Source of the DNA: an uncultured Bacilli bacterium
GTDB lineage: Bacteria > Bacillota_I > Bacilli_A > RF39 > UBA660
DNA: 64,000 bases
Reading direction: 5' to 3'
Assembly: GCA_934162665.1 (NCBI GenBank)
Contig: CAKPJN010000007.1
Coordinates: 2,479-66,478 of the forward strand
Shown: piece after piece, positions 11,856-26,445 of the stretch
Position numbering within the stretch: position 1 is the stretch's first letter
How the letters are laid out: the number at the start of each line of letters is the position of its first letter
Notes under the pieces: model-generated
What the model saw: only the letters and a program-made list of their open reading frames with translations
What the model was told of the DNA's origin: nothing
Database searches by the model: none
Translations under genes and position numbers: made by a program

Positions 11856-12299
11856 CTATAAAAACTTTTTTAAATCTTCTATTGTTTTCTCTTGAAATTT
11901 CATAAAATCTTTAGCAATCTTCAAATAATCTTTATTAACTTCATCATCATAATCTTTAATCTTTTTTTCCATATCTATAGATCCCATAGATATACCTTTA
12001 ATTAACATATCAGCAATAGAAGAATCACTATTATCTTTTTTGACTTCCTTATGAATCCCCATAGAAGACATCATTTTTGCGATAGTACCTTCTTCTTCCA
12101 AAGGTGAACCATTATTTTTAAGTTCATCCTTTGTTTTTGATACAAATTCTTCATATCTTTTTAAAATATCTTCTATCGTACTCTTTATTTTATTATCCTT
12201 TTCTTTTAAATCATTCAACAACTTAGTTAAATTATAAACAGCCATAGAACTATCTTTATAAATATGTTCTATCAATTCAATATTTTCATCCATGTTCAT
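11856..12299 (-). CDS. Hypothetical protein (147 aa, K/E/D-rich)
   Basis: ORF only. Confidence 0.35.
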   Translation of the reverse strand: MNMDENIELIEHIYKDSSMAVYNLTKLLNDLKEKDNKIKSTIEDILKRYEEFVSKTKDELKNNGSPLEEEGTIAKMMSSMGIHKEVKKDNSDSSIADMLIKGISMGSIDMEKKIKDYDDEVNKDYLKIAKDFMKFQEKTIEDLKKFL

Positions 12300-16120: not shown

Positions 16121-16612
16121 TATTCTCCTCCTATAATAAATATATATGTAAGGGGAAAAAATTTATTTATAATCAAATATAATTTTATAACATTATAGGT
16201 AAAACTTATATTTGAAATTCTCATTTGTTTTTATCATATTAATATTTATTTTTTCTTTTAAAATTTAAAATCTTATGCTTATATGACTCCTCTTGCATTT
16301 CATAATAATTATTATAAAACTATCTTGATATTCTTTTAATTCTTCTATATTTAAATCATTTGCCATCATTTTAATGAAATAACAAAAGATATCAGAAAAT
16401 TGAATCTGATATCTTCTATATTTTAATCCCAAATAAAAAGTTCGAGTTTGGTATCAATCTGGTGCCACAAAGGTTGTAGTACAACAACTTTTAAGACAAT
16501 AATTATAGGTAGTAATAAATTACTAACTGATATAAGTATAACACGATAACTATTTTAATGAAAGTCAATCTCAAAATATCGATTAAAAATTTGATATATG
16601 TTAAAATATATT

Positions 16613-16743: not shown

Positions 16744-17313
16744 ATGCCACCTAGAGTTAAAATAACAAAAGATGATGTAATAAATGCGACTTTAAATATT
16801 GTTAAAACAGAAGGAATTACTAATATATCCGCAAGAAGAATTGCTAAAGGACTTAAAAGTTCAGTTCAGCCAATATTTACTCATTTTGAATCAATGGAAG
16901 AACTAACAAATGTCGCAACTATGAAAATTTATGAACAATATAAAAATTCTATGATAGAGGCTTCAAAAAAAGAAAAATTACCATATAAAGCAATGGGGAT
17001 GGCATATATAAAATTTGCAAAATACTATCCTGAATATTTTAAAGTATTATTTATGCAAAAATCAGATAAAAGTGCGATGGATTTTATGCTATCTGATAAT
17101 ACTGGAAATAATGTTGTTGAAGTTGGAACAGAAATGTCAGGATTAAGTTTAGAAAAGCAGAAAGAATTTCATATAAAAGTATGGATGTTTACACACGGAA
17201 TTGCAAGTTTAATGGCAACTAAAACTATAGAAATGAGTGATAGTGAAATAGAAGATTTACTTGGAAACACGGTTCGAGAAATGTTAATAGGATTTAAAAA
17301 GGAGGAAATGTAA
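16744..17313 (+). CDS. TetR/AcrR family transcriptional regulator
   Basis: N-terminal HTH pattern ..ISARRIAKGLKSSVQPIFTHFESMEEL. Confidence 0.75.
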   Translation: MPPRVKITKDDVINATLNIVKTEGITNISARRIAKGLKSSVQPIFTHFESMEELTNVATMKIYEQYKNSMIEASKKEKLPYKAMGMAYIKFAKYYPEYFKVLFMQKSDKSAMDFMLSDNTGNNVVEVGTEMSGLSLEKQKEFHIKVWMFTHGIASLMATKTIEMSDSEIEDLLGNTVREMLIGFKKEEM

Positions 17314-18254
17314 TGTCTAAAAATGTTATAGAAGTTAAAAATTTAACAAAAGAATATAAAGAATTAAAAGCAATAGATAATTTATCTTTTGAAGTTAAAG
17401 AGGGAGAAATTTTAGGACTATTAGGTCCTAATGGAAGTGGAAAAACTACAACGATAAATTGTATTTTATCATTACTTAATTTTAAAAGTGGAAGTATTAA
17501 AATATTTGATAAAGAAATGAATCCTAATGCTTATGATATAAAAGCAAATATTGGTGTAGTATTTCAAGAAGTTGCAGTATTTGAAGAATTAACAGTAATA
17601 GATAATATTGATTATTTTTGTGGTTTATATATAAATGATAAAAATACTAGAAAAAAATATGTTGAAGAAGCAATAGAATTAGTTGGGTTAGAAAGTTTTA
17701 AAAAATTTTATCCAAAACAATTATCTGGAGGGCTTTTAAGAAGATTAAATATTGCTTCTGGTATAGCACACAAACCTAAATTAATATTTTTAGATGAGCC
17801 AACAGTTGCAGTAGATCCTCAAAGTAGAAATAATATTTTAGATGGTATAAAAAAGTTAAGAGAAAGTGGTGCAACCATTATATATACAACACATTATATG
17901 GAAGAAGTAGAAATACTATGTGATAGAATTATTATTTTAGATAAAGGTAAAATCCTAGTAAGTGGTACATCTGATGAATTAAAGAGCTTAGCAAATATAG
18001 AAGAAAAAATAACAGTAGAAATTATGGAATTAGATAAGAAATATATTGAAGAAATAAAAACTTTAAAGAATGTTGATGAAGTGATATATACTAATCAAAC
18101 ACTAATAGTTACATATAAAAAAGGCAAAAATAATCTAACTGATTTTATAGATTATTTAAAAAAAGAGAGTATTAAATATAATAAAATTTATTCTGAAAGA
18201 CCAACACTTAACGATGTATTTTTAGAATTAACTGGTAAGGAATTAAGAGATTAG
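17313..18254 (+). CDS. ABC transporter ATP-binding protein
   Basis: Walker A GPNGSGKTTT, signature LSGGLLRRL and Walker B IFLDEPT. The start overlaps the tetR stop. Confidence 0.85.
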   Translation: MSKNVIEVKNLTKEYKELKAIDNLSFEVKEGEILGLLGPNGSGKTTTINCILSLLNFKSGSIKIFDKEMNPNAYDIKANIGVVFQEVAVFEELTVIDNIDYFCGLYINDKNTRKKYVEEAIELVGLESFKKFYPKQLSGGLLRRLNIASGIAHKPKLIFLDEPTVAVDPQSRNNILDGIKKLRESGATIIYTTHYMEEVEILCDRIIILDKGKILVSGTSDELKSLANIEEKITVEIMELDKKYIEEIKTLKNVDEVIYTNQTLIVTYKKGKNNLTDFIDYLKKESIKYNKIYSERPTLNDVFLELTGKELRD

Positions 18255-18255
18255 T

Positions 18256-19434
18256 ATGTTTTGGCATAATTTTAAATATTCCTTAAAAACTCTCTTTAAA
18301 AATAAAATGCTAATATTTTGGACATTTGCCTTTCCAATAATATTAGGAACACTTTTTCAAATGGCTTTTTCAAATATAGAAAATAGTGAAAAATTTGAAG
18401 TGCTGGATGTAGCGATAGTAGAAACTGATGAATTTAATAATAACGAAATATATAAAGAATCATTTAAGGCTTTAAGTGATGAAAATAGTGATAGCAGGTT
18501 ATTTAATATAGAATATGTAACAGAAGATAAAGCAAAATCATTATTAGAAAGTAAGGAAATAGTGGGATACGTTCTAATTACTGATAAAGCAAAAGTGATA
18601 ATAAATTCTAGTGGTACTGATGAAACTATTTTAAAATATGCAGTAGATGAAATTACAAATCAGGAAAAAATTATAAATAATTTAGTAGAAATAGAAACTG
18701 GAAATGTATTACAAGAAAATAAAGTAAGTATAAATTATGAAGAAATTTATAAAAGTGCAATTTCTAAAATAGAAAATACAACATCAAATATTGAAGATAC
18801 ATCTAAATCTAACTTAAGTTATACAATGATAGAATTTTATACTTTGATAGCAATGGCTTGTTTGTATGGTGGAATATTTGGTATGGTATCTATTAACAAT
18901 TGTTTAGCAAATATGTCAAGCAAAGGAAAAAGAGTTGCTGTTAGTCCTACCAAAAAAGGAAAACTTATATTGAGTAGTGTTTTAGCAAGTTATATTACAC
19001 AGATAGTAGGACTATTACTATTATTTCTTTACACAATATTTGTTTTAAAAGTTGATTTTGGAAATAATTTATCAATGATTATATTACTTGCTTTAACTGG
19101 AAGTCTTGCAGGATTATCACTTGGCATATTTGTATCTACATTTATAAAAGCAAATGATAATGCTAAAACAGGAATTTTAATTGCATTTACAATGCTTTGC
19201 TGTTTCTTATCAGGAATGATGGGGATTACTATGAAATATGTAATTGATAAAAATATTCCTATTTTAAATAAGATAAATCCAGCAAATATGATTACAGATG
19301 GTTTTTATGCTTTATATTATAATGATACACTAGATAGATATTATTTTAATGTATTTAGTTTACTTGTATTTTCAGGAATTCTTATCTTACTTTCTATAAT
19401 AAGTTTAAGGAGGCAAAAATATGATAGTATTTAA
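18256..19434 (+). CDS. ABC-2 type transporter permease
   Basis: N-terminal TM, a large extracytoplasmic loop, then 5 C-terminal TMs. Adjacent to the ATPase. Confidence 0.6.
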   Translation: MFWHNFKYSLKTLFKNKMLIFWTFAFPIILGTLFQMAFSNIENSEKFEVLDVAIVETDEFNNNEIYKESFKALSDENSDSRLFNIEYVTEDKAKSLLESKEIVGYVLITDKAKVIINSSGTDETILKYAVDEITNQEKIINNLVEIETGNVLQENKVSINYEEIYKSAISKIENTTSNIEDTSKSNLSYTMIEFYTLIAMACLYGGIFGMVSINNCLANMSSKGKRVAVSPTKKGKLILSSVLASYITQIVGLLLLFLYTIFVLKVDFGNNLSMIILLALTGSLAGLSLGIFVSTFIKANDNAKTGILIAFTMLCCFLSGMMGITMKYVIDKNIPILNKINPANMITDGFYALYYNDTLDRYYFNVFSLLVFSGILILLSIISLRRQKYDSI

Positions 19435-20557
19435 AACATTTTTAAAAGTATTAAATAAGTGTAAAATGCCTGTTATAATGTTTACAATTATGCTTATCAT
19501 ATTCGGAGCATTTAGAACAACAACTAATGAAGATACTGGAAACTTTATAGAAACTAAGCCTGATATTGCTATAGTAAATAATGATGAAAACACAGGAATC
19601 ACAAAAGATTTTATAAATTACTTAAATGAAAATGCCAATGTTAAAGAAGTAGATAACCTAGATGATGCTTTATTTTATAGAGATGTAAGTTATATTGTAT
19701 ATATTCCAGATAATTTTAGAGATGACTTCTTAAATGGTAAAAATCCTAAAATAGAAGTAAAAAGTACAGGAGATTATGAATCAAATTTAGCAGAAATGAT
19801 AATTGATAGATATATTAAAGTAGCAAATATCTATGTAAGCGAAAATCTTTCAGAAGATGAAGTCATCAGAAATATAAATGATACTTTAAATGATAAAACA
19901 GAAGTAGAAATAACATCAAAATTAGATGAAACAGGTATTTCAAAATTAGTCTTTTTCTATAATTTTGCTAATTATTCTCTTTTAGCAGGAGGAATATATG
20001 TTGCATGTTTGATTCTTTCTAGTTTTAAAGAAGAAAAAATTAGAAAAAGAACAATAATTAGTAGTATGAATGATAAGAAATTTAATAGGCAACTATTACT
20101 ATCAAATAGTTCGTTTATGATTTGTTTATGGGCATTTTACTCTTTACTAGGTATAGTTCTTTTGGGAGATATAATGTTTACAAAGCAAGGATTAATTTGT
20201 GTTATAAACTCATTTATATTCAGTATGTGCTGTTTAACGATAGCATTTCTAATAGGAAATATAAGCAGTAATAAAAATGCTATAAATGGAATTATAAATG
20301 TAATTGCACTAGGTTCAAGTTTCTTATGTGGTGCATTTGTTCCAATGGAATGGTTACCAAAATCTATATTATCACTTGCTCATATTCTACCATCATATTA
20401 CTATATTAAAACAAATGAATTATTAAAAGAAATAGAAATATTTAATATAGATACTTTAAAACCTATTATTTTGAATATGATAGTTATAGTGATATTTAGT
20501 GTAATATTTGTTGTAATTACAAATGTTATTTCAAACAAAAATAAAAAGATAGATTAG
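19421..20557 (+). CDS. ABC-2 type transporter permease (second subunit)
   Basis: Same topology as the preceding permease and overlaps it by 14 nt. Confidence 0.6.
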   Translation: MIVFKTFLKVLNKCKMPVIMFTIMLIIFGAFRTTTNEDTGNFIETKPDIAIVNNDENTGITKDFINYLNENANVKEVDNLDDALFYRDVSYIVYIPDNFRDDFLNGKNPKIEVKSTGDYESNLAEMIIDRYIKVANIYVSENLSEDEVIRNINDTLNDKTEVEITSKLDETGISKLVFFYNFANYSLLAGGIYVACLILSSFKEEKIRKRTIISSMNDKKFNRQLLLSNSSFMICLWAFYSLLGIVLLGDIMFTKQGLICVINSFIFSMCCLTIAFLIGNISSNKNAINGIINVIALGSSFLCGAFVPMEWLPKSILSLAHILPSYYYIKTNELLKEIEIFNIDTLKPIILNMIVIVIFSVIFVVITNVISNKNKKID

Positions 20558-20618
20558 TAGTTTAAAAAGTTATAAGTTGTTGTTAGATAAATTACAATTA
20601 ATCGAGCAGATTATAAAA

Positions 20619-20658
20619 GGAATATGAATCTATAAAACTCATATTCCTTTTTCTTTTG
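20619..20658 (+). terminator. Rho-independent terminator of ABC operon
   Basis: Perfect 9-bp inverted repeat GGAATATGA/TCATATTCC around an 11-nt loop, followed by TTTTTCTTTT. It overlaps the stop codon of the convergent RHH gene. Confidence 0.6.
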
Positions 20659-20791
20659 AATCTAACATTTTGATGTAACCCATTTCTAATAACTGAACCA
20701 TCATTTTAGTAGTTGATATACCATAGAACTTTGCCATTAATTTTATTCTATCATATAGTTCTATTGGCAGATAAAAATTAAATCTATGCAT
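20639..20791 (-). CDS. Ribbon-helix-helix (CopG/Arc-type) DNA-binding protein, 50 aa
   Basis: Not in the ORF track (below 60 aa). Strong RBS AGGAGG 8 nt upstream of the ATG. Translation MHRFNFYLPIELYDRIKLMAKFYGISTTKMMVQLLEMGYIKMLDSKEKGI carries the classic RFNFYLP RHH beta-strand. Confidence 0.6.
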   Translation of the reverse strand: MHRFNFYLPIELYDRIKLMAKFYGISTTKMMVQLLEMGYIKMLDSKEKGI

Positions 20792-21070: not shown

Positions 21071-22258
21071 TTATGTTTTTTGAGATTCTAATTCATTTTT
21101 GAATTTTTCTTTTAAGTCTTTAAAGATTTTACTATATGTTTCATTACTAATATTTGGAATATTACTTAAATCTAGTGTAATAACTCCTAATTTTAAATTT
21201 TGATTTTTAAACCCTTTATCTGGCTTTATAGAAATTAATCGTATTATTTTTTCTAGATTAATATTAGATGAATATTTTATATCTTTTAAATCATCATCAG
21301 TATCTATTTCATAGTAATTAAATTTATATTCGTTTAATGTACTACATAACTTATCAAAATAATTTTTAACTTCTTCTTTACTTTTTACTTCATGGTTCAT
21401 ATTAAGATAACAACCATATTCATCTTTAAATAATCTTAAGTTAAAAGGTACACTATAATTATTATGGTTATCTATTAAATCTTTCAAATAGGAACTTCTA
21501 AATTCTCCATTTATGATATTGATTTTATTATTCGTTTTTAGAGTGGTTAAGTTATCAATATATTTAGCAATTATTCTTTGTTTTTCCTGTTTTTCTAAAC
21601 CATCCCATTTATAAAAATCTTTTAAGTAGTTGTCGGGTTTGGTAAACATTTCTATTTCTTGCTTATCTTCTAGTATTAGCAAATCATCTAAAGTAAAACT
21701 TAAAATTTCATATTGTTTTTGTTCTTTTTGTTTATTTAATAGTTCTTCTCTTTTAAAATCAATATGTTTTATTTCTTTATTAAAATCAATTTCACTATTA
21801 TCTAATTCAGATTTTATAAATTGTGTATAGTAATCATTTAATAGGTTATCTTGTCTTAATAATTCATTAAATAGTAAGATTAAACTTTCTTCTATATCTT
21901 TTTCAGTATAATATGCTTTACAACCTTTACATTTGTAATAATAGTATTTCTTGCCACTAGGTTTTGTACTAGCACATCCACCTAAGAAACAACCACATTT
22001 AGAACATTTAAGTTTATTAATAAATAGATATGTTGCAGTTCTTTCATAGTGCCTAGCATTTTTTTTTGCTTGTATTTGGCAAGAATCCCATTTTTCTTTA
22101 GATACAATAGGCTCTATAACATTTTCATAGTAAGTTGGATGCTTTGTTCTTTTGCCATGAATAAAATCGCCTTTATAAAGTTGATTTGCTAGTATTTTTT
22201 GTATTGTAGAATCATACCAATTTGTTTTATCTAATAATTTTTCTTCGTTAATGATGTC
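21071..22258 (-). pseudogene. Large serine recombinase, 5'-truncated (lacks N-terminal catalytic resolvase domain)
   Basis: Manual translation shows one continuous frame, with no stop from 22276 down to 21071. It contains the recombinase-domain pattern (WYDSTIQKILANQLYKGDFIHGKRTK..PIVSKEKWDSCQ) and the zinc-ribbon pattern (LKCSKCGCFLGGC...YYYYKCKGC) of large serine recombinases, followed by a coiled-coil tail. No resolvase catalytic domain exists upstream, because the frame runs into the antisense of the integrase fragment. Confidence 0.6.
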
Positions 22259-22262
22259 AGAA

Positions 22263-22391
22263 AATAAAGAATTATATCAAATAAGTAAAAAAATTGGCCA
22301 TAGTGACTACTCTACAACAGTTAATAAATATGGCCACTTATCAAATCAAATTAAAAGAGAAATTGCGGAAATTACAGATAAATATATTTAA
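22263..22391 (+). pseudogene. Tyrosine recombinase/integrase C-terminal fragment (about 42 aa including catalytic Tyr box)
   Basis: The plus frame translates NKELYQISKKIGHSDYSTTVNKYGHLSNQIKREIAEITDKYI*, matching the ..LGHS.I.TT..YTHV.. C-terminal box of phage-type integrases. No integrase sequence lies upstream; that region encodes the serine recombinase on the other strand. Confidence 0.5.
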
Positions 22392-22458
22392 AATGGGAGT
22401 AATTTAAAGAGTAAAAATAATAAAAACCGTTACAGTATAACGATTTGAAAACACAAAA

Positions 22459-22493
22459 TGGTGCCAGTAAGGAGCAGGTCTAACAACTCCTAG
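22459..22493 (-). repeat. tRNA/tmRNA 3'-end-like fragment (T-arm + CCA), putative att remnant
   Basis: Minus-strand reading CTAGGAGTTGTTAGACCTGCTCCTTACTGGCACCA has an AGGAG/CTCCT stem and terminal CACCA. It resembles the tmRNA 3' end at 26105-26136 (GGACAGGAGTTCGATTCTCCTCAGCTCCACCA). Confidence 0.3.
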
Positions 22494-22942
22494 ACAAAAA
22501 GATGATAGTAAGTAATACTTACTAACTAATTACATTATACACATTAGCAAAACAAAAAGAAAGTATTTTATTCTACTTTCTTATTTTCTTTAGTATCGGT
22601 CCTTTTTCTTCATGAATTGCTTAATATAGTTTTTCTCTAGCAATTGATGATTGTGGATTTCTCATTTCTTTTATATTTTCTAAAGCATCTAACAATATTT
22701 TTTCTTTTTTTGAAGCGTTTTCTAATTATACTTTATCAATTGACAGATCAACATACAGATAATTATTCTTTATTGATGTTTTCTATATTTACTTTTATAC
22801 TTTTGGAAATGCCATATCCTAAATTAACAACGATTGAACTTACAAATAATATTCCAAAAAGAATTATGTCTTTTGTTAATAATATAGTAGCAACTGAAAT
22901 TACTCCTCACCAACTAATCTATTTATTGTATTTCTAATAATT

Positions 22943-23320
22943 TTATCTTCTTTTCATTAATTTTAAAGTTTTTGTTTGCTCTTCTAATTTATCAATTTTA
23001 CTATCAATAATTTTTTCTGCTATCTTATATCCTATACTATTTTCATTTAATTTCTCAACTATATATTTAAACTCATTAGGAGCTATATCTAAAAATGTTC
23101 TTAATGCTATTTCAAGTACATACAACTTTTTATCTTCATCGATATCGTAATGTCCGACACCTGTTTTTATAGTCTCAAAAATTTCACCATATCTTATATA
23201 AATAATAGTTTTTTCTTGAAATGTACCTCTTATATCAGATTGTTGCTCTATAATAATAAAATTAGTACCGATTACATCATCATACTCGTCTTTAATATCA
23301 TTATGACTTATATCTGCCAT
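22943..23320 (-). CDS. Hypothetical protein (125 aa), island cargo
   Basis: ORF with no recognisable motif. Confidence 0.4.
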   Translation of the reverse strand: MADISHNDIKDEYDDVIGTNFIIIEQQSDIRGTFQEKTIIYIRYGEIFETIKTGVGHYDIDEDKKLYVLEIALRTFLDIAPNEFKYIVEKLNENSIGYKIAEKIIDSKIDKLEEQTKTLKLMKRR

Positions 23321-23380: not shown

Positions 23381-23890
23381 TTAAAAATCCTCATATATTG
23401 TTCTTTCAATTTTCTTTACTTTTACTAAATCAGGTCCAATTTCAATATTCTTTTTACATTGTTCCATATAATATCTGCATAATGGTTTACTCCAATTATA
23501 ATATTTTAAAAATAAATCTGAATAACCATAAACAATATTATTAGCAATACCAATTAATTTTTTCTTATCTTCTAATAATTTTTTTTGTGTTTCTAATTTT
23601 TCTTCTTTGGTATCATTTCTATATGATTTTTGAGCAATTTTAATAAAATAGTATTCTCTAATTAGATTATCTAATGTCATATATTCTTCTTTAGTATATT
23701 TATTATCAGTAATTTCTACTCCCCAACCACATAATTCATTATTAGAAGAATCAAATCCACATGTCATGGAAACATTAAATCCCACTACAAAGCCTCCCCT
23801 CAAATAGTAAAAAATTATACCATATTTTCCCACTTTTATAGCATTTTTATAATCATTATTTATTTTCGATAAAAACTCTATTGTTTTCAT
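23381..23890 (-). CDS. Hypothetical protein (169 aa), island cargo
   Basis: ORF whose start overlaps the end of the KilA-N gene by 35 nt. No recognisable motif. Confidence 0.4.
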   Translation of the reverse strand: MKTIEFLSKINNDYKNAIKVGKYGIIFYYLRGGFVVGFNVSMTCGFDSSNNELCGWGVEITDNKYTKEEYMTLDNLIREYYFIKIAQKSYRNDTKEEKLETQKKLLEDKKKLIGIANNIVYGYSDLFLKYYNWSKPLCRYYMEQCKKNIEIGPDLVKVKKIERTIYEDF

Positions 23891-24776
23891 TTATTCTTTC
23901 TTGTAGTAATTCTAATTCTTTAATACCTTTATTATTTTTTAATATTTCCATTTGGTTTCTAGCAGAATTATTCAAACTAATCAATCTTTCACTCTGTGAC
24001 ATACCTAGTTTTATAAACTCTGCATTTGTATTTTCTAAATTATTTAATATTACTAAATGTAATAAATCAGTATAATCTCTCATATTACCATTTTTTGCTA
24101 ATTTAGGATTATTTTCTCTCCATTCTTTAGCAGTCATTCCAAATAATGCAACATTTAATACATCAGCTTCTTCAGCATATACAAATCTTTTTTGTTCTTC
24201 TGTTAGTGTAGGAACTATATAATTTTTAACTGCATCTGTATGAACCACATAATTTAATTTAGATAATAATCTATTAGCGTGCCATTCAATTTTTTGTTGA
24301 TACATTTCATTACTTTTTAATCTTTCAAATTCTTTTATTAAATAAAGTTTAAATTCAGGACTTAACCAACTGGCAAATTCAAATGCAATATCAGGATGAG
24401 CAAATGTTCCACCATCATATCTTCCAGATTTTGAAACAATTCCAATTGCATTAGTTTCTTTAATCCATTTTTGTGGGGACATTTTAAATTTATTACTGCC
24501 TGCTTCATTTTTAAAGGTAGCGAATTCGCCCCCTTTAAAATTTTTATTATTCATACTTTCCCATAGTCCTAAATAAGAAATAACTTCTTTATTTCTCATC
24601 CAATCTCTAATTGGAAGTCTTGGTTCTTCTGCATCAGCATATCTCGCTAAATCAGTAAGTGATATATAATCTACATCTCCAATTCTCATTATTCCTATTT
24701 TATTATCTATAACATTTATTTCAGTTTTTACTAAATCTTTTGACATATTTTTGCTCCTTTCTAAATAGTTAGACAA
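23856..24776 (-). CDS. KilA-N domain protein with C-terminal coiled-coil
   Basis: GRYDGGTFAHPDIAFEFASWLSPEFKLYL matches the KilA-N/APSES core. Confidence 0.6.
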   Translation of the reverse strand: MSNYLERSKNMSKDLVKTEINVIDNKIGIMRIGDVDYISLTDLARYADAEEPRLPIRDWMRNKEVISYLGLWESMNNKNFKGGEFATFKNEAGSNKFKMSPQKWIKETNAIGIVSKSGRYDGGTFAHPDIAFEFASWLSPEFKLYLIKEFERLKSNEMYQQKIEWHANRLLSKLNYVVHTDAVKNYIVPTLTEEQKRFVYAEEADVLNVALFGMTAKEWRENNPKLAKNGNMRDYTDLLHLVILNNLENTNAEFIKLGMSQSERLISLNNSARNQMEILKNNKGIKELELLQERINENNRVFIENK

Positions 24777-24831: not shown

Positions 24832-26091
24832 TTATAATTCAATATCATCATCTTTTTTCTTATTTTCTTTATATTTTTTACTAATAGGTAAATCATATAT
24901 TTTCTTATATTCTTTTTCAGTTATTATATTACTTTCTCTTAAATCATCTGTAATATCCTTATATTTACTTTTTAATATATTACCAAATAATCCTTTAACT
25001 CTTTCAGATATAAAATCTACAATTTCATTAACTCTTTGCTTCCAAGATTCTACTTTTGCTTCAAGTTCAATTATTTTTTTATTTAATGTATTTATTGTAT
25101 TTTTTGAAACCATTAACAATCTTTCTTTTTCTTCTAATTTAACTTTTAAATCTTCATTATCATTTGTTAAATTTCTAATAGTATTATGATTATCTTCTAA
25201 ATCTTTTTTTATATTTTCAAGTGATAAATTATAATTATTAATACTTTTAAAGTTTTTATTATTCTTATCAATATCATTTATATACTCTAATAATTTATCT
25301 TTTTTATCATTAGAAATAATTAAGTTGTTGTTTGATAAAGGTTGTTGTTTTAAACTTTCTAATATTTCTTTAACTTCGTTTGATTTCACATTTATCTTAT
25401 CTACATTTTTATTTATTTCAGTTATTTTCTTATGTTGTTTTTTATAATCATTTTTCAACTTATCATAATTTTTCATTTGTCCAACACGATAATCTTGATT
25501 GCTTCCTTGTTCTTTTTCTTTTAATTTAGCATTCAAGCCATAAACTTTATTAAAATCATTTATACAAGATTCTCTAAGTTTATCTTGAATAATTTTTAAT
25601 AATTCTATTGTAAATACATCAGATTTTCCTACTTGTTTATTCATACCTGTTTTACAATTTTCTTTTACTGGAACACCAACTATATGCAAGTGTAGAGAGT
25701 ATTCATCAAAATGGCAAGTCGCATTTGCTACATAGAAGTCTGGAACTATTTCTTTTAAATCTTTAATTAATATCTTATTACTTAAATTTTCAATATAGAT
25801 ATTTGTTTCATAATTAAATGCAAGAAATGTAATACCTTTAATAATTATTCTATGTGGCTCTACATAAGATAAGTTTGTTCTTTCTATTGTTCTAATTGAA
25901 CCTTTTTGTATTTCACATTTAGTATTGCAGAAACTACATACAAATTCTAGTTTCTTTCTTAATGCTTCTTCAATATCAATTTCTTGCTTAATAATATTTA
26001 CCATTAAATCATCCCTTTCTTTTAAACACAACAAAAAATCAATTCCATTTCTAGAATTGATATTTATTAGTAAAGTTGAACTAATGTTCAA
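24832..26091 (-). CDS. MobV-family relaxase / plasmid recombination enzyme (Mob_Pre) with coiled-coil C-terminus
   Basis: HxDE..HxH motif CHFDEYSLHLHIVGVP sits at residues 127-136, the position of MobM motif III. Followed by a long K/E/N-rich coiled-coil. The start codon is TTG 13 bp from the tmRNA 3' end. Confidence 0.6.
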   Translation of the reverse strand: MNISSTLLININSRNGIDFLLCLKERDDLMVNIIKQEIDIEEALRKKLEFVCSFCNTKCEIQKGSIRTIERTNLSYVEPHRIIIKGITFLAFNYETNIYIENLSNKILIKDLKEIVPDFYVANATCHFDEYSLHLHIVGVPVKENCKTGMNKQVGKSDVFTIELLKIIQDKLRESCINDFNKVYGLNAKLKEKEQGSNQDYRVGQMKNYDKLKNDYKKQHKKITEINKNVDKINVKSNEVKEILESLKQQPLSNNNLIISNDKKDKLLEYINDIDKNNKNFKSINNYNLSLENIKKDLEDNHNTIRNLTNDNEDLKVKLEEKERLLMVSKNTINTLNKKIIELEAKVESWKQRVNEIVDFISERVKGLFGNILKSKYKDITDDLRESNIITEKEYKKIYDLPISKKYKENKKKDDDIEL

Positions 26092-26104: not shown

Positions 26105-26445
26105 TGGTGGAGCTGAGGAGAATCGAACTCCTGTCCGAAAATAAAGCTACATAAACTTCTACAAGTTTAGTTAACTAATTAAATTCATCTAATTATAAAG
26201 TAGTTAACACCCAGATAATTAGACTAGACTATTAATTTCATTTTAGCTATAGTCATAACTAAAACATAATCTGTTAAAAATTGAACCTCCATATATCTAG
26301 CAGATAAGATATATTTCAGTGCATCCCATTAAATTAAGCGAATGCTAATTGATTTCTGTTTCCAGTTATTTTTAATTTGCTTTAACGTAATGCGTACGAC
26401 TTGCCATTTATGCTCTAATATTCCCGTCGAAACCAAGTCAGCCCC
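26105..26445 (-). ncRNA. ssrA: tmRNA (ssrA)
   Basis: 5' GGGGCTGACTTGGTTTCGACGGG and 3' GGACAGGAGTTCGATTCTCCTCAGCTCCACCA tRNA-like ends. Internal tag frame ..AGC AAA TTA AAA ATA ACT GGA AAC AGA AAT CAA TTA GCA TTC GCT TAA (..NQLAFA*). smpB lies immediately upstream. Confidence 0.8.

Follow-up and report, generated by a model that had tools for sequence, protein, structure and literature searches.

In the genome of an uncultured Bacilli bacterium (GTDB lineage Bacteria; Bacillota_I; Bacilli_A; RF39; UBA660), parts of two site-specific recombinase genes meet head to head. They lie within a stretch of 64,000 nucleotides, referred to here as the window (NCBI GenBank assembly GCA_934162665.1, contig CAKPJN010000007.1, forward-strand positions 2,479 to 66,478); coordinates below are those of the window. 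On the minus strand is the 3' part of a large serine recombinase (LSR) gene, and on the plus strand the 3' end of a tyrosine integrase gene. The two meet at 22250/22251. This junction is probably the non-functional scar of a single illegitimate deletion, of the microhomology type, among tandemly integrated mobile elements that are decaying at the 3' end of ssrA, the gene for transfer-messenger RNA (tmRNA). The probability of this reading can be put at roughly 0.78. The junction is an ordinary new example of a known process, and neither fragment is part of a working system.

The joint and the two gene remnants

The serine recombinase remnant, designated 'LSR, runs on the minus strand from 22251 to 21071, with its stop codon at 21071-21073. 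It corresponds to approximately residues 201-621 of homologues 621 amino acids long. A preliminary description of the window, made without database searches, had taken as recombinase the whole open minus-strand frame from 22276 to 21071. The frame is indeed open for 402 codons, with a stop codon immediately upstream of 22276, but the integrase fragment, read in antisense, accounts for about the first eight codons (22276-22252), and the recombinase part ends at 22251. There is no ATG, GTG or TTG in codons 1-198; the earliest possible start is the TTG at 21682, and the longest open reading frame (ORF) that results is 203 amino acids.

A Pfam search with 'LSR matched the Recombinase domain PF07508 (E 8.9e-10), over profile positions 28-101 of 102 only. 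A match to Zn_ribbon_recom was weak and below the cut-off (E 0.0047), and the cysteine motifs CSKCG...YKCKGC are present. The same search found no Resolvase (PF00239) catalytic domain. In a large protein collection, which returned thousands of homologues, the nearest are 620-622 amino acids long, contain both PF00239 and PF07508, and are 84-86% identical to 'LSR with a database E-value of 1e-231. Among GTDB species representatives, the best match is 86%. One intact homologue, P0001 (621 residues), aligns with 'LSR at 84% identity from about residue 197-201 to its C-terminus, and carries the nucleophilic-serine motif (YxRVSTxxQ type) as IYKRVSTLDQ. The original assignment to a serine recombinase lacking its catalytic domain was therefore correct. 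An E-value of this order also rules out chance similarity. Thus 'LSR has the PF07508 domain, zinc ribbon and coiled coil of a large serine recombinase, and has neither the catalytic domain nor a complete translatable gene. It is a gene remnant, and with the nucleophile domain gone it is predicted to have no recombinase activity.

The tyrosine integrase remnant, int', occupies 22252-22391 on the plus strand. It is read in a 46-residue ORF (22251-22391, from an ATG at 22251) whose product is MMSENKELYQISKKIGHSDYSTTVNKYGHLSNQIKREIAEITDKYI. All 46 residues align with residues 331-376 of the 376-residue integrase P0137 (61% identity, pairwise E 9e-19), and database E-values of 1e-17 to 1e-22 rule out chance similarity. 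The preliminary description had named the right family, but its fragment of about 42 residues beginning at 22263 was too short; the homologous part has 46 residues and begins at 22250-22252.

Pfam gave no integrase match for the 46-residue ORF alone, which is too short. For this reason, homology was demonstrated through longer relatives. Relatives of int' that reach further upstream have YDLRHTYVATMM and match PF00589 at profile positions 112-170 of 172, as the 76-residue protein P0127 does. An exhaustive HMMER search with a longer int' relative as query recovered full-length integrases of 376-393 residues.

Tyrosine recombinases share a catalytic set that can be written R-K-H-R-H/W-Y. The remnant is homologous to an integrase C-terminus and has the last two members only, the histidine of IGHS and the tyrosine of NKYGHL. 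The first arginine (Arg-I), the lysine and the HxxR box, (Y/H)xLRH, lie upstream of the break, within P0137 residues 1-330. Since four of the six catalytic residues are absent, int' is not expected to act as a recombinase. No Shine-Dalgarno sequence was seen ahead of the 46-residue ORF.

Downstream of int' comes the native 3' flank of the integrase gene (22392-22458, plus strand), with a terminator-like hairpin; it is conserved in relatives up to the CCA end of a tRNA gene. At two related loci (L004 and L005) this flank adjoins tRNA-Glu(CTC), and the integrase gene lies about 70 nucleotides from the tRNA gene and convergent with it. The integrases of both loci are pseudogenes with multiple frameshifts. 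At L107-L110 an integrase of the int' family is broken at about residue 328, beside another tRNA, and at L111 the integrase is apparently intact over the part of the gene that the contig covers. Beside tRNA genes, members of this family have decayed independently of one another. In the window, the 67-nucleotide flank adjoins the CACCA end of a conserved motif (motif B, described below) in the way that the family adjoins tRNA genes elsewhere. Another int' relative, P0134, is 728 residues long: its last 240 or so residues are an integrase catalytic region, preceded by a long unrelated N-terminal part. The fusion may be real or may stem from gene calling.

The two DNA homologies meet at the joint. 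Similarity to loci with an intact LSR (L001, L007 and L008; 92-96% identity) extends from about 20587 up to 22251 and ends there. Similarity to the integrase loci L003, L004 and L005 begins at 22250 and continues through the stop codon and 3' flank to 22458. The two nucleotides AA at 22250-22251 are common to both parents. Alignment of both translations with full-length homologues places the breaks at about residue 201 of 621 and at residue 331 of 376, which bears out the earlier statement that each gene is cut where the other begins.

The missing halves are not nearby. Searches with tblastn using full-length P0001, P0137, P0139 and P0144 detected no further part of the two genes in the window, and the N-terminal 200 residues of P0001 also gave no match there. 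Compared with intact relatives, the serine element has lost about 1.2 kb, namely its left end, an ORF of 91 amino acids and recombinase codons 1-200; essentially all of the tyrosine-integrase element is gone. The joint shows no attachment-site (att)-like features and no likeness to the CACCA core at the ends of the island described below.

The 46-residue ORF was found on 15 contigs. In the ten of these that were fetched, which come from independent runs of several projects, identity to the window across the joint is 99.9-100%, and there are 20-kb contigs that cover the entire region with the joint. At least 10 independent runs thus show the same joint, which excludes an assembly chimera.

The island downstream of ssrA

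Both remnants belong to an island at the tmRNA gene ssrA (26105-26445, minus strand; smpB lies upstream). The CCA 3' end of ssrA is the left boundary of the island, which extends over 26104-16465 (9,640 bp) and has the pentamer CACCA at both ends.

The state of this site in different strains can be read from contigs that encode an identical SmpB protein. Three of them (L098, L099 and L101) have the arrangement of the window and span the whole 9.64-kb composite island downstream of ssrA. In two others (L097 and L105) the site is empty: position 26105 is joined directly to 16464, and the flanks are 100% and 99.95-100% identical to those of the window. Finally, the sister strain L100 has a different element, with an intact LSR of 592 residues, that starts at the same ssrA CCA end. 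The L100 element is unrelated to the island and also carries a SNF2 helicase and a DNA methylase.

The island can be read as two units, E1 (26104-22459) and E2 (22458-16465). It resembles a tandem pair of LSR-type mobilizable elements, between which the tyrosine-integrase remnant lies. E1 contains a 419-residue ORF, a KilA-N gene, two ORFs of unknown function and motif B. E2 contains int', 'LSR, a ribbon-helix-helix (RHH) gene, a TetR/ABC-2 transporter operon and a second end motif, motif A.

The segment of E2 from 22251 to 16465 has the layout of L001, in which a 91-residue ORF is followed by an LSR, an RHH gene, TetR/ABC cargo and motif A. The left end, the 91-residue ORF and LSR codons 1-200 of this layout are absent from E2. 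The LSR-RHH module is 92-94% identical to that of L001, motif A is 94% identical, and only the ABC cargo differs.

E1 resembles L053, L071 and L078, where a 91-residue ORF, an LSR, a Mob relaxase, a KilA-N gene and motif B are found. E1 has no LSR of its own, and its 419-residue ORF (24832-26091, minus strand) is chimeric. Residues 1 to about 109 resemble the 91-residue ORF, and the remainder (109-419) matches residues 148-458 of the L053 relaxase, of the Mob_Pre (MobV) type, at 80% identity. The joint between these parts lies near 25765, apparently at a short similarity (KDL). The ORF is thus a second deletion scar, and the LSR of E1 and relaxase residues 1-147 were removed with it. The 419-residue ORF was also considered as an uninterrupted target gene, that is, the empty site of an LSR-RHH mini-element. 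This was rejected, as the L053 homologue is a complete Mob_Pre protein of 458 residues, the first 147 of which are absent here.

Each unit closes with a right-end motif. Motif B (22459-22540, minus strand), the inferred end of E1, is a conserved stretch of about 70-80 nucleotides ending in ...CTCCTTACTGGCACCA. Its identity is 93-100% with the copies in L053 and L071 and 88-91% with that in L083. Motif A (16462-16541, minus strand) ends in ...CCTTTGTGGCACCA. The island ends within it, at 16465, and the sequence from 16464 downward is chromosome common to empty-site strains. The two motifs are in direct orientation.

If the island were excised, the predicted joints would be ssrA-CACCA-GATTGATACC (attB) and motif A-CACCA-TTAAAGAATC (attP). 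The attP joint of an excised circle had no match in JGI metagenomes, a collection from which the organism is absent and in which a control joint also had none. Beyond ssrA itself, no copy of the ssrA 3' end was found inside the island when it was searched for as a classical tyrosine-integrase att duplication. Generic repeat searches gave low-complexity matches only, and missed the gapped motif pair A/B.

An integrative mobilizable element (IME) can be recognized by presence/absence polymorphism with precise ends and by intact integrase and relaxase genes. The island has the former and lacks the latter. Since both LSR genes and nearly all of the tyrosine integrase have been lost, it has no enzymes of its own with which to move, and it is at best a decayed, cis-mobilizable remnant.

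Origin of the joint

The likely sequence of events behind the joint starts with successive entry at the ssrA CCA end. E2 would have entered first, then a tyrosine-integrase island and then E1, each newcomer displacing the older elements away from ssrA. With the integrase gene directed toward ssrA and the LSR of E2 directed away from it, the two would have been divergent neighbours. The int' flank would be expected to adjoin the CACCA of motif B if the integrase island already occupied the ssrA CCA end at the arrival of E1. In a single deletion from about integrase codon 330 to about LSR codon 200, the integrase island would then have lost its body and E2 its left end and 91-residue ORF, so that the two 3' portions were left head to head. 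The microhomology of two nucleotides, together with a joint unlike the CACCA core, argues for illegitimate rather than site-specific recombination.

Other signs of decay are found in the island: the chimeric ORF of E1, a small deletion within 'LSR, a poly-T frameshift in one sample, and a ratio of nonsynonymous to synonymous substitution rates (dN/dS) that is higher for 'LSR than between intact genes. The small deletion (site 21767-21788, minus strand, identified by comparison with intact relatives) removed 84 nucleotides (28 codons) in frame from the coiled-coil region. The block corresponds to P0001 residues 361-388, which all homologues keep, and the 84 nucleotides are present in every fetched relative whose match spans the deletion point. 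The deletion is bounded by imperfect direct repeats of about 20 nucleotides, GATTTTrATAAAGArATAAAA, both of which are present in intact relatives. Three separate deletions are thus visible, at 2-nucleotide microhomology, apparently at a short similarity (KDL), and at 20-nucleotide repeats. The decay of the island is ongoing.

The frameshift concerns a run of ten T at 22058-22067, the length of which differs among samples. L090 and L002, which are one contig, have eleven T and so a shifted recombinase frame. In protein P0002, called from this contig, two stop codons were also rendered as Q by the gene caller.

The preliminary description left open whether the scar came from insertion or deletion. 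Deletion is favoured because both 5' parts are lost, the missing halves are absent from the window, the parents share two nucleotides at the joint and att-like features are lacking there. An insertion of one element into the recombinase gene of the other, with later loss of the remainder, would agree with the precise abutment of the fragments and with the common integration of LSR-type elements inside genes (PMC5704250). A simple insertion, however, interrupts a single gene, the other half of which should then lie beyond the far side of the insert. Here both genes are truncated at the 5' end, the window has no complementary half, and this reading would require two or more additional deletions. 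Moreover, the joint lies inside both coding sequences and does not resemble the CACCA att core of the island ends. An insertion scar is for these reasons quite improbable. An artefact joining unrelated reads might be feared in an uncultured organism, many of whose related contigs are short and broken at repeats, but with the joint present in independently assembled contigs of 10 runs and on 20-kb contigs spanning the island, it can be dismissed for practical purposes.

Several points weigh against a deletion within an array built up at this site. The order of integration, and a single deletion as opposed to several, are inferred. Among the contigs fetched there is no intermediate strain in which the integrase island or E2 is intact, and every island-bearing contig, L098, L099 and L101 included, has the same island. 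The 3' end of motif B, ..TTACTGGCACCA, is unlike ssrA beyond CACCA, and therefore the acquisition of int' may have taken place at a different tRNA-like site and predate its arrival here. The rise in dN/dS is only modest: the ratio is 0.17-0.22 between 'LSR and intact relatives, against 0.10 between two intact genes, and when the counts are split among three taxa, the window branch has about 0.3 and each of the two others about 0.1. Most of the divergence from relatives therefore predates inactivation, or else the decay is recent.

The composite could also have arrived already decayed, as one unit. It would then have been scarred in another host and moved as a cis-mobilizable unit by an LSR acting in trans. 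Besides the unrelated element of L100, only the empty and full composite states were sampled in the species; the composite has kept both its ends, ssrA-CACCA and motif A-CACCA, intact; and the transfer of composites of decayed and intact elements has been documented (PMC5704250). The JGI search, in which neither the attP joint nor the control was matched, says nothing for or against it. We consider acquisition in one step rather unlikely, and it would alter the place of the deletion, not the nature of the junction.

A further possibility is domestication: 'LSR, with its DNA-binding recombinase, zinc-ribbon and coiled-coil parts, or the 46-residue peptide would have taken on a new role, such as regulation or the inhibition of newly arriving LSR elements. 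In its favour, the 1.2-kb frame has remained open, comparison with intact relatives gives a dN/dS below 1, and the island is about 100% conserved among sampled strains. Two of these observations have other explanations: the low dN/dS is accounted for by divergence before inactivation, and the near-identity of the strains reflects recent common ancestry rather than constraint. In addition, 'LSR has 198 codons without a start codon, no Shine-Dalgarno sequence precedes the 46-residue ORF, the coiled coil that LSRs need for synapsis has lost 28 residues, and one sample carries the poly-T frameshift. Domestication is very improbable, and the preferred reading remains a deletion scar in a decaying array. 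As such, the joint is a clean, well-bounded case of the inactivation of elements stacked at one att site. For annotation, neither ORF should be called a recombinase, and the scar opens no new question.

Related elements and neighbouring features

Tandem accretion followed by decay is common for integrative mobilizable elements in Firmicutes (Guedon et al. 2017, PMC5704250), where Pavlovic et al. (2004) are cited for arrays of IMEs and cis-mobilizable elements (CIMEs). The island is like these arrays in several respects. One target, the ssrA 3' end, holds a stack of several site-specific elements; deletions have deprived the older units of their integrase and relaxase genes but not of their end sequences; and the site varies between strains, being empty or occupied by the composite or by another element. 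It differs from them in that remnants of two unrelated recombinase families are fused head to head, and in that the LSR family is uncharacterized and belongs to uncultured low-GC gut Bacilli. The GC content of the organism is 24%, and its neighbours L053 and L080 place it in such a gut Bacilli lineage.

Members of the 'LSR family are common in metagenome-assembled genomes labelled Bacilli, Tenericutes or Mollicutes. In the intact layout, a tRNA or tmRNA gene is followed by an ORF of 91-93 residues, the LSR, often a 50-residue RHH gene, cargo, and a right-end motif of about 70-80 nucleotides ending in GCACCA. A tRNA or tmRNA gene on the same strand ends 419-621 nucleotides upstream of the LSR start codon in 39 of the 53 evaluable loci (L007-L086). 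The targets of these 39 are genes for tRNA-Thr (15), tRNA-Gly (7), tmRNA (7), tRNA-Leu (6), tRNA-Phe (2), tRNA-Lys (1) and tRNA-Arg (1). Tandem arrays occur, with up to four units (L054). In some relatives the LSR is followed by a Mob_Pre relaxase, such as the 458-residue protein of L053 (PF01076, E 8.6e-14). Since the LSR is accompanied by a relaxase, these relatives are small (3-7 kb) integrative mobilizable elements.

The right-end motif has the form AGTTAGTAA..TTATTACT..GTTGTT..GCACCA and is found 2-5 kb downstream of LSR genes at about 25 related loci. It is preceded by a TATAAT- or TATACT-like box, and its 3' end resembles a tRNA acceptor end. The copies at 22459-22540 and 16462-16541 were considered as a tRNA or another known RNA. 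ARAGORN and Rfam found nothing, and RNAalifold gave no consensus structure from 17 diverse copies, so the motifs are treated as DNA end motifs and not as RNAs.

A more distant LSR subgroup (L015, L020, L070 and L079) is 41-47% identical to the C-terminal part of P0001 and lies between an ORF of the 91-residue type and a Mob-like gene. Its elements occur in tandem with those of the close family, a sign that the same landing sites may serve several LSR lineages.

The intact relatives, in which 3-7 kb hold an LSR, a relaxase of the Mob_Pre type (PF01076) and small cargo, are similar in gene content to Tn4451/Tn4453 of Clostridia, which carry the LSR TnpX and the Mob/Pre relaxase TnpZ. Tn4451 has low target specificity. 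In contrast, the 'LSR family is found directly 3' of tRNA and tmRNA genes.

In the work of Williams in 2002 and in the Islander database, to both of which PMC12884075 refers, tyrosine-integrase islands are said to lie at tRNA and tmRNA 3' ends with the integrase gene beside the RNA gene. The int' family agrees with this, being convergent with tRNA genes and about 70 nucleotides from their 3' ends, and decay leaves the tRNA-proximal part of the integrase. In the window, however, int' touches the CACCA of an LSR-element end motif and not a real tRNA or tmRNA gene.

According to Guedon et al. (PMC5704250), IMEs with serine recombinases usually interrupt genes, and tyrosine integrases use tRNA gene ends. 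The position of the 'LSR family at tRNA and tmRNA ends may be unusual for serine integrases. Tentatively, these elements can be proposed as a possibly undescribed family: widespread LSR mobilizable elements of 3-7 kb in low-GC gut Bacilli that integrate exactly at the CCA end of many tRNA genes and of the tmRNA gene without damage, have a GCACCA right end and pile up in tandem. The site described here provides an occupied/empty pair with exact ends for LSR elements at tmRNA and tRNA 3' ends. If confirmed, the family would widen the known target range of serine integrases and supply natural attB/attP pairs that do not disrupt genes.

The empty site has some resemblance to an element end. Its ssrA flank, GATTGATACCAAACTCGAAC... 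(window 16417-16464; L097 11129-11175), is 86% identical over 50 nucleotides to the left ends of LSR elements that follow tRNA-Thr and tRNA-Leu genes elsewhere (L055, L057 and L067). The left ends downstream of ssrA in L053, L014 and L080 start with the same 20 or so nucleotides as the empty-site flank. The empty ssrA site may thus itself hold the fossil of an older element.

The remaining genes of the island are the cargo of the two units and the RHH gene of E2. In E1, on the minus strand, a KilA-N protein is encoded at 23856-24776, with homologues at the equivalent position in L071 and L078, and the two unknown ORFs are at 23381-23890 and 22943-23320. In E2, the 50-residue ribbon-helix-helix gene (20639-20791, minus strand) follows the LSR as in the closest relatives, and DNA homology to L001 ends at 20587. 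The cargo of E2, the TetR regulator and ABC-2 transporter operon, lies on the plus strand (16744-20557); L001 has a different TetR/ABC set at the same position.

Outside the island, a 147-residue ORF (11856-12299) with a weak Pfam match was considered as a further recombinase remnant and rejected, as it has no similarity to P0001. The segment 16464-10917, which encodes DUF2935, DAO/Rieske, CotF and DUF5661 proteins, is extra relative to the syntenic locus L080. For the window ssrA, ARAGORN predicts a tmRNA tag of 9 residues, GNRNQLAFA; for L053, L080 and L014 it predicts tags of 20-21 residues.

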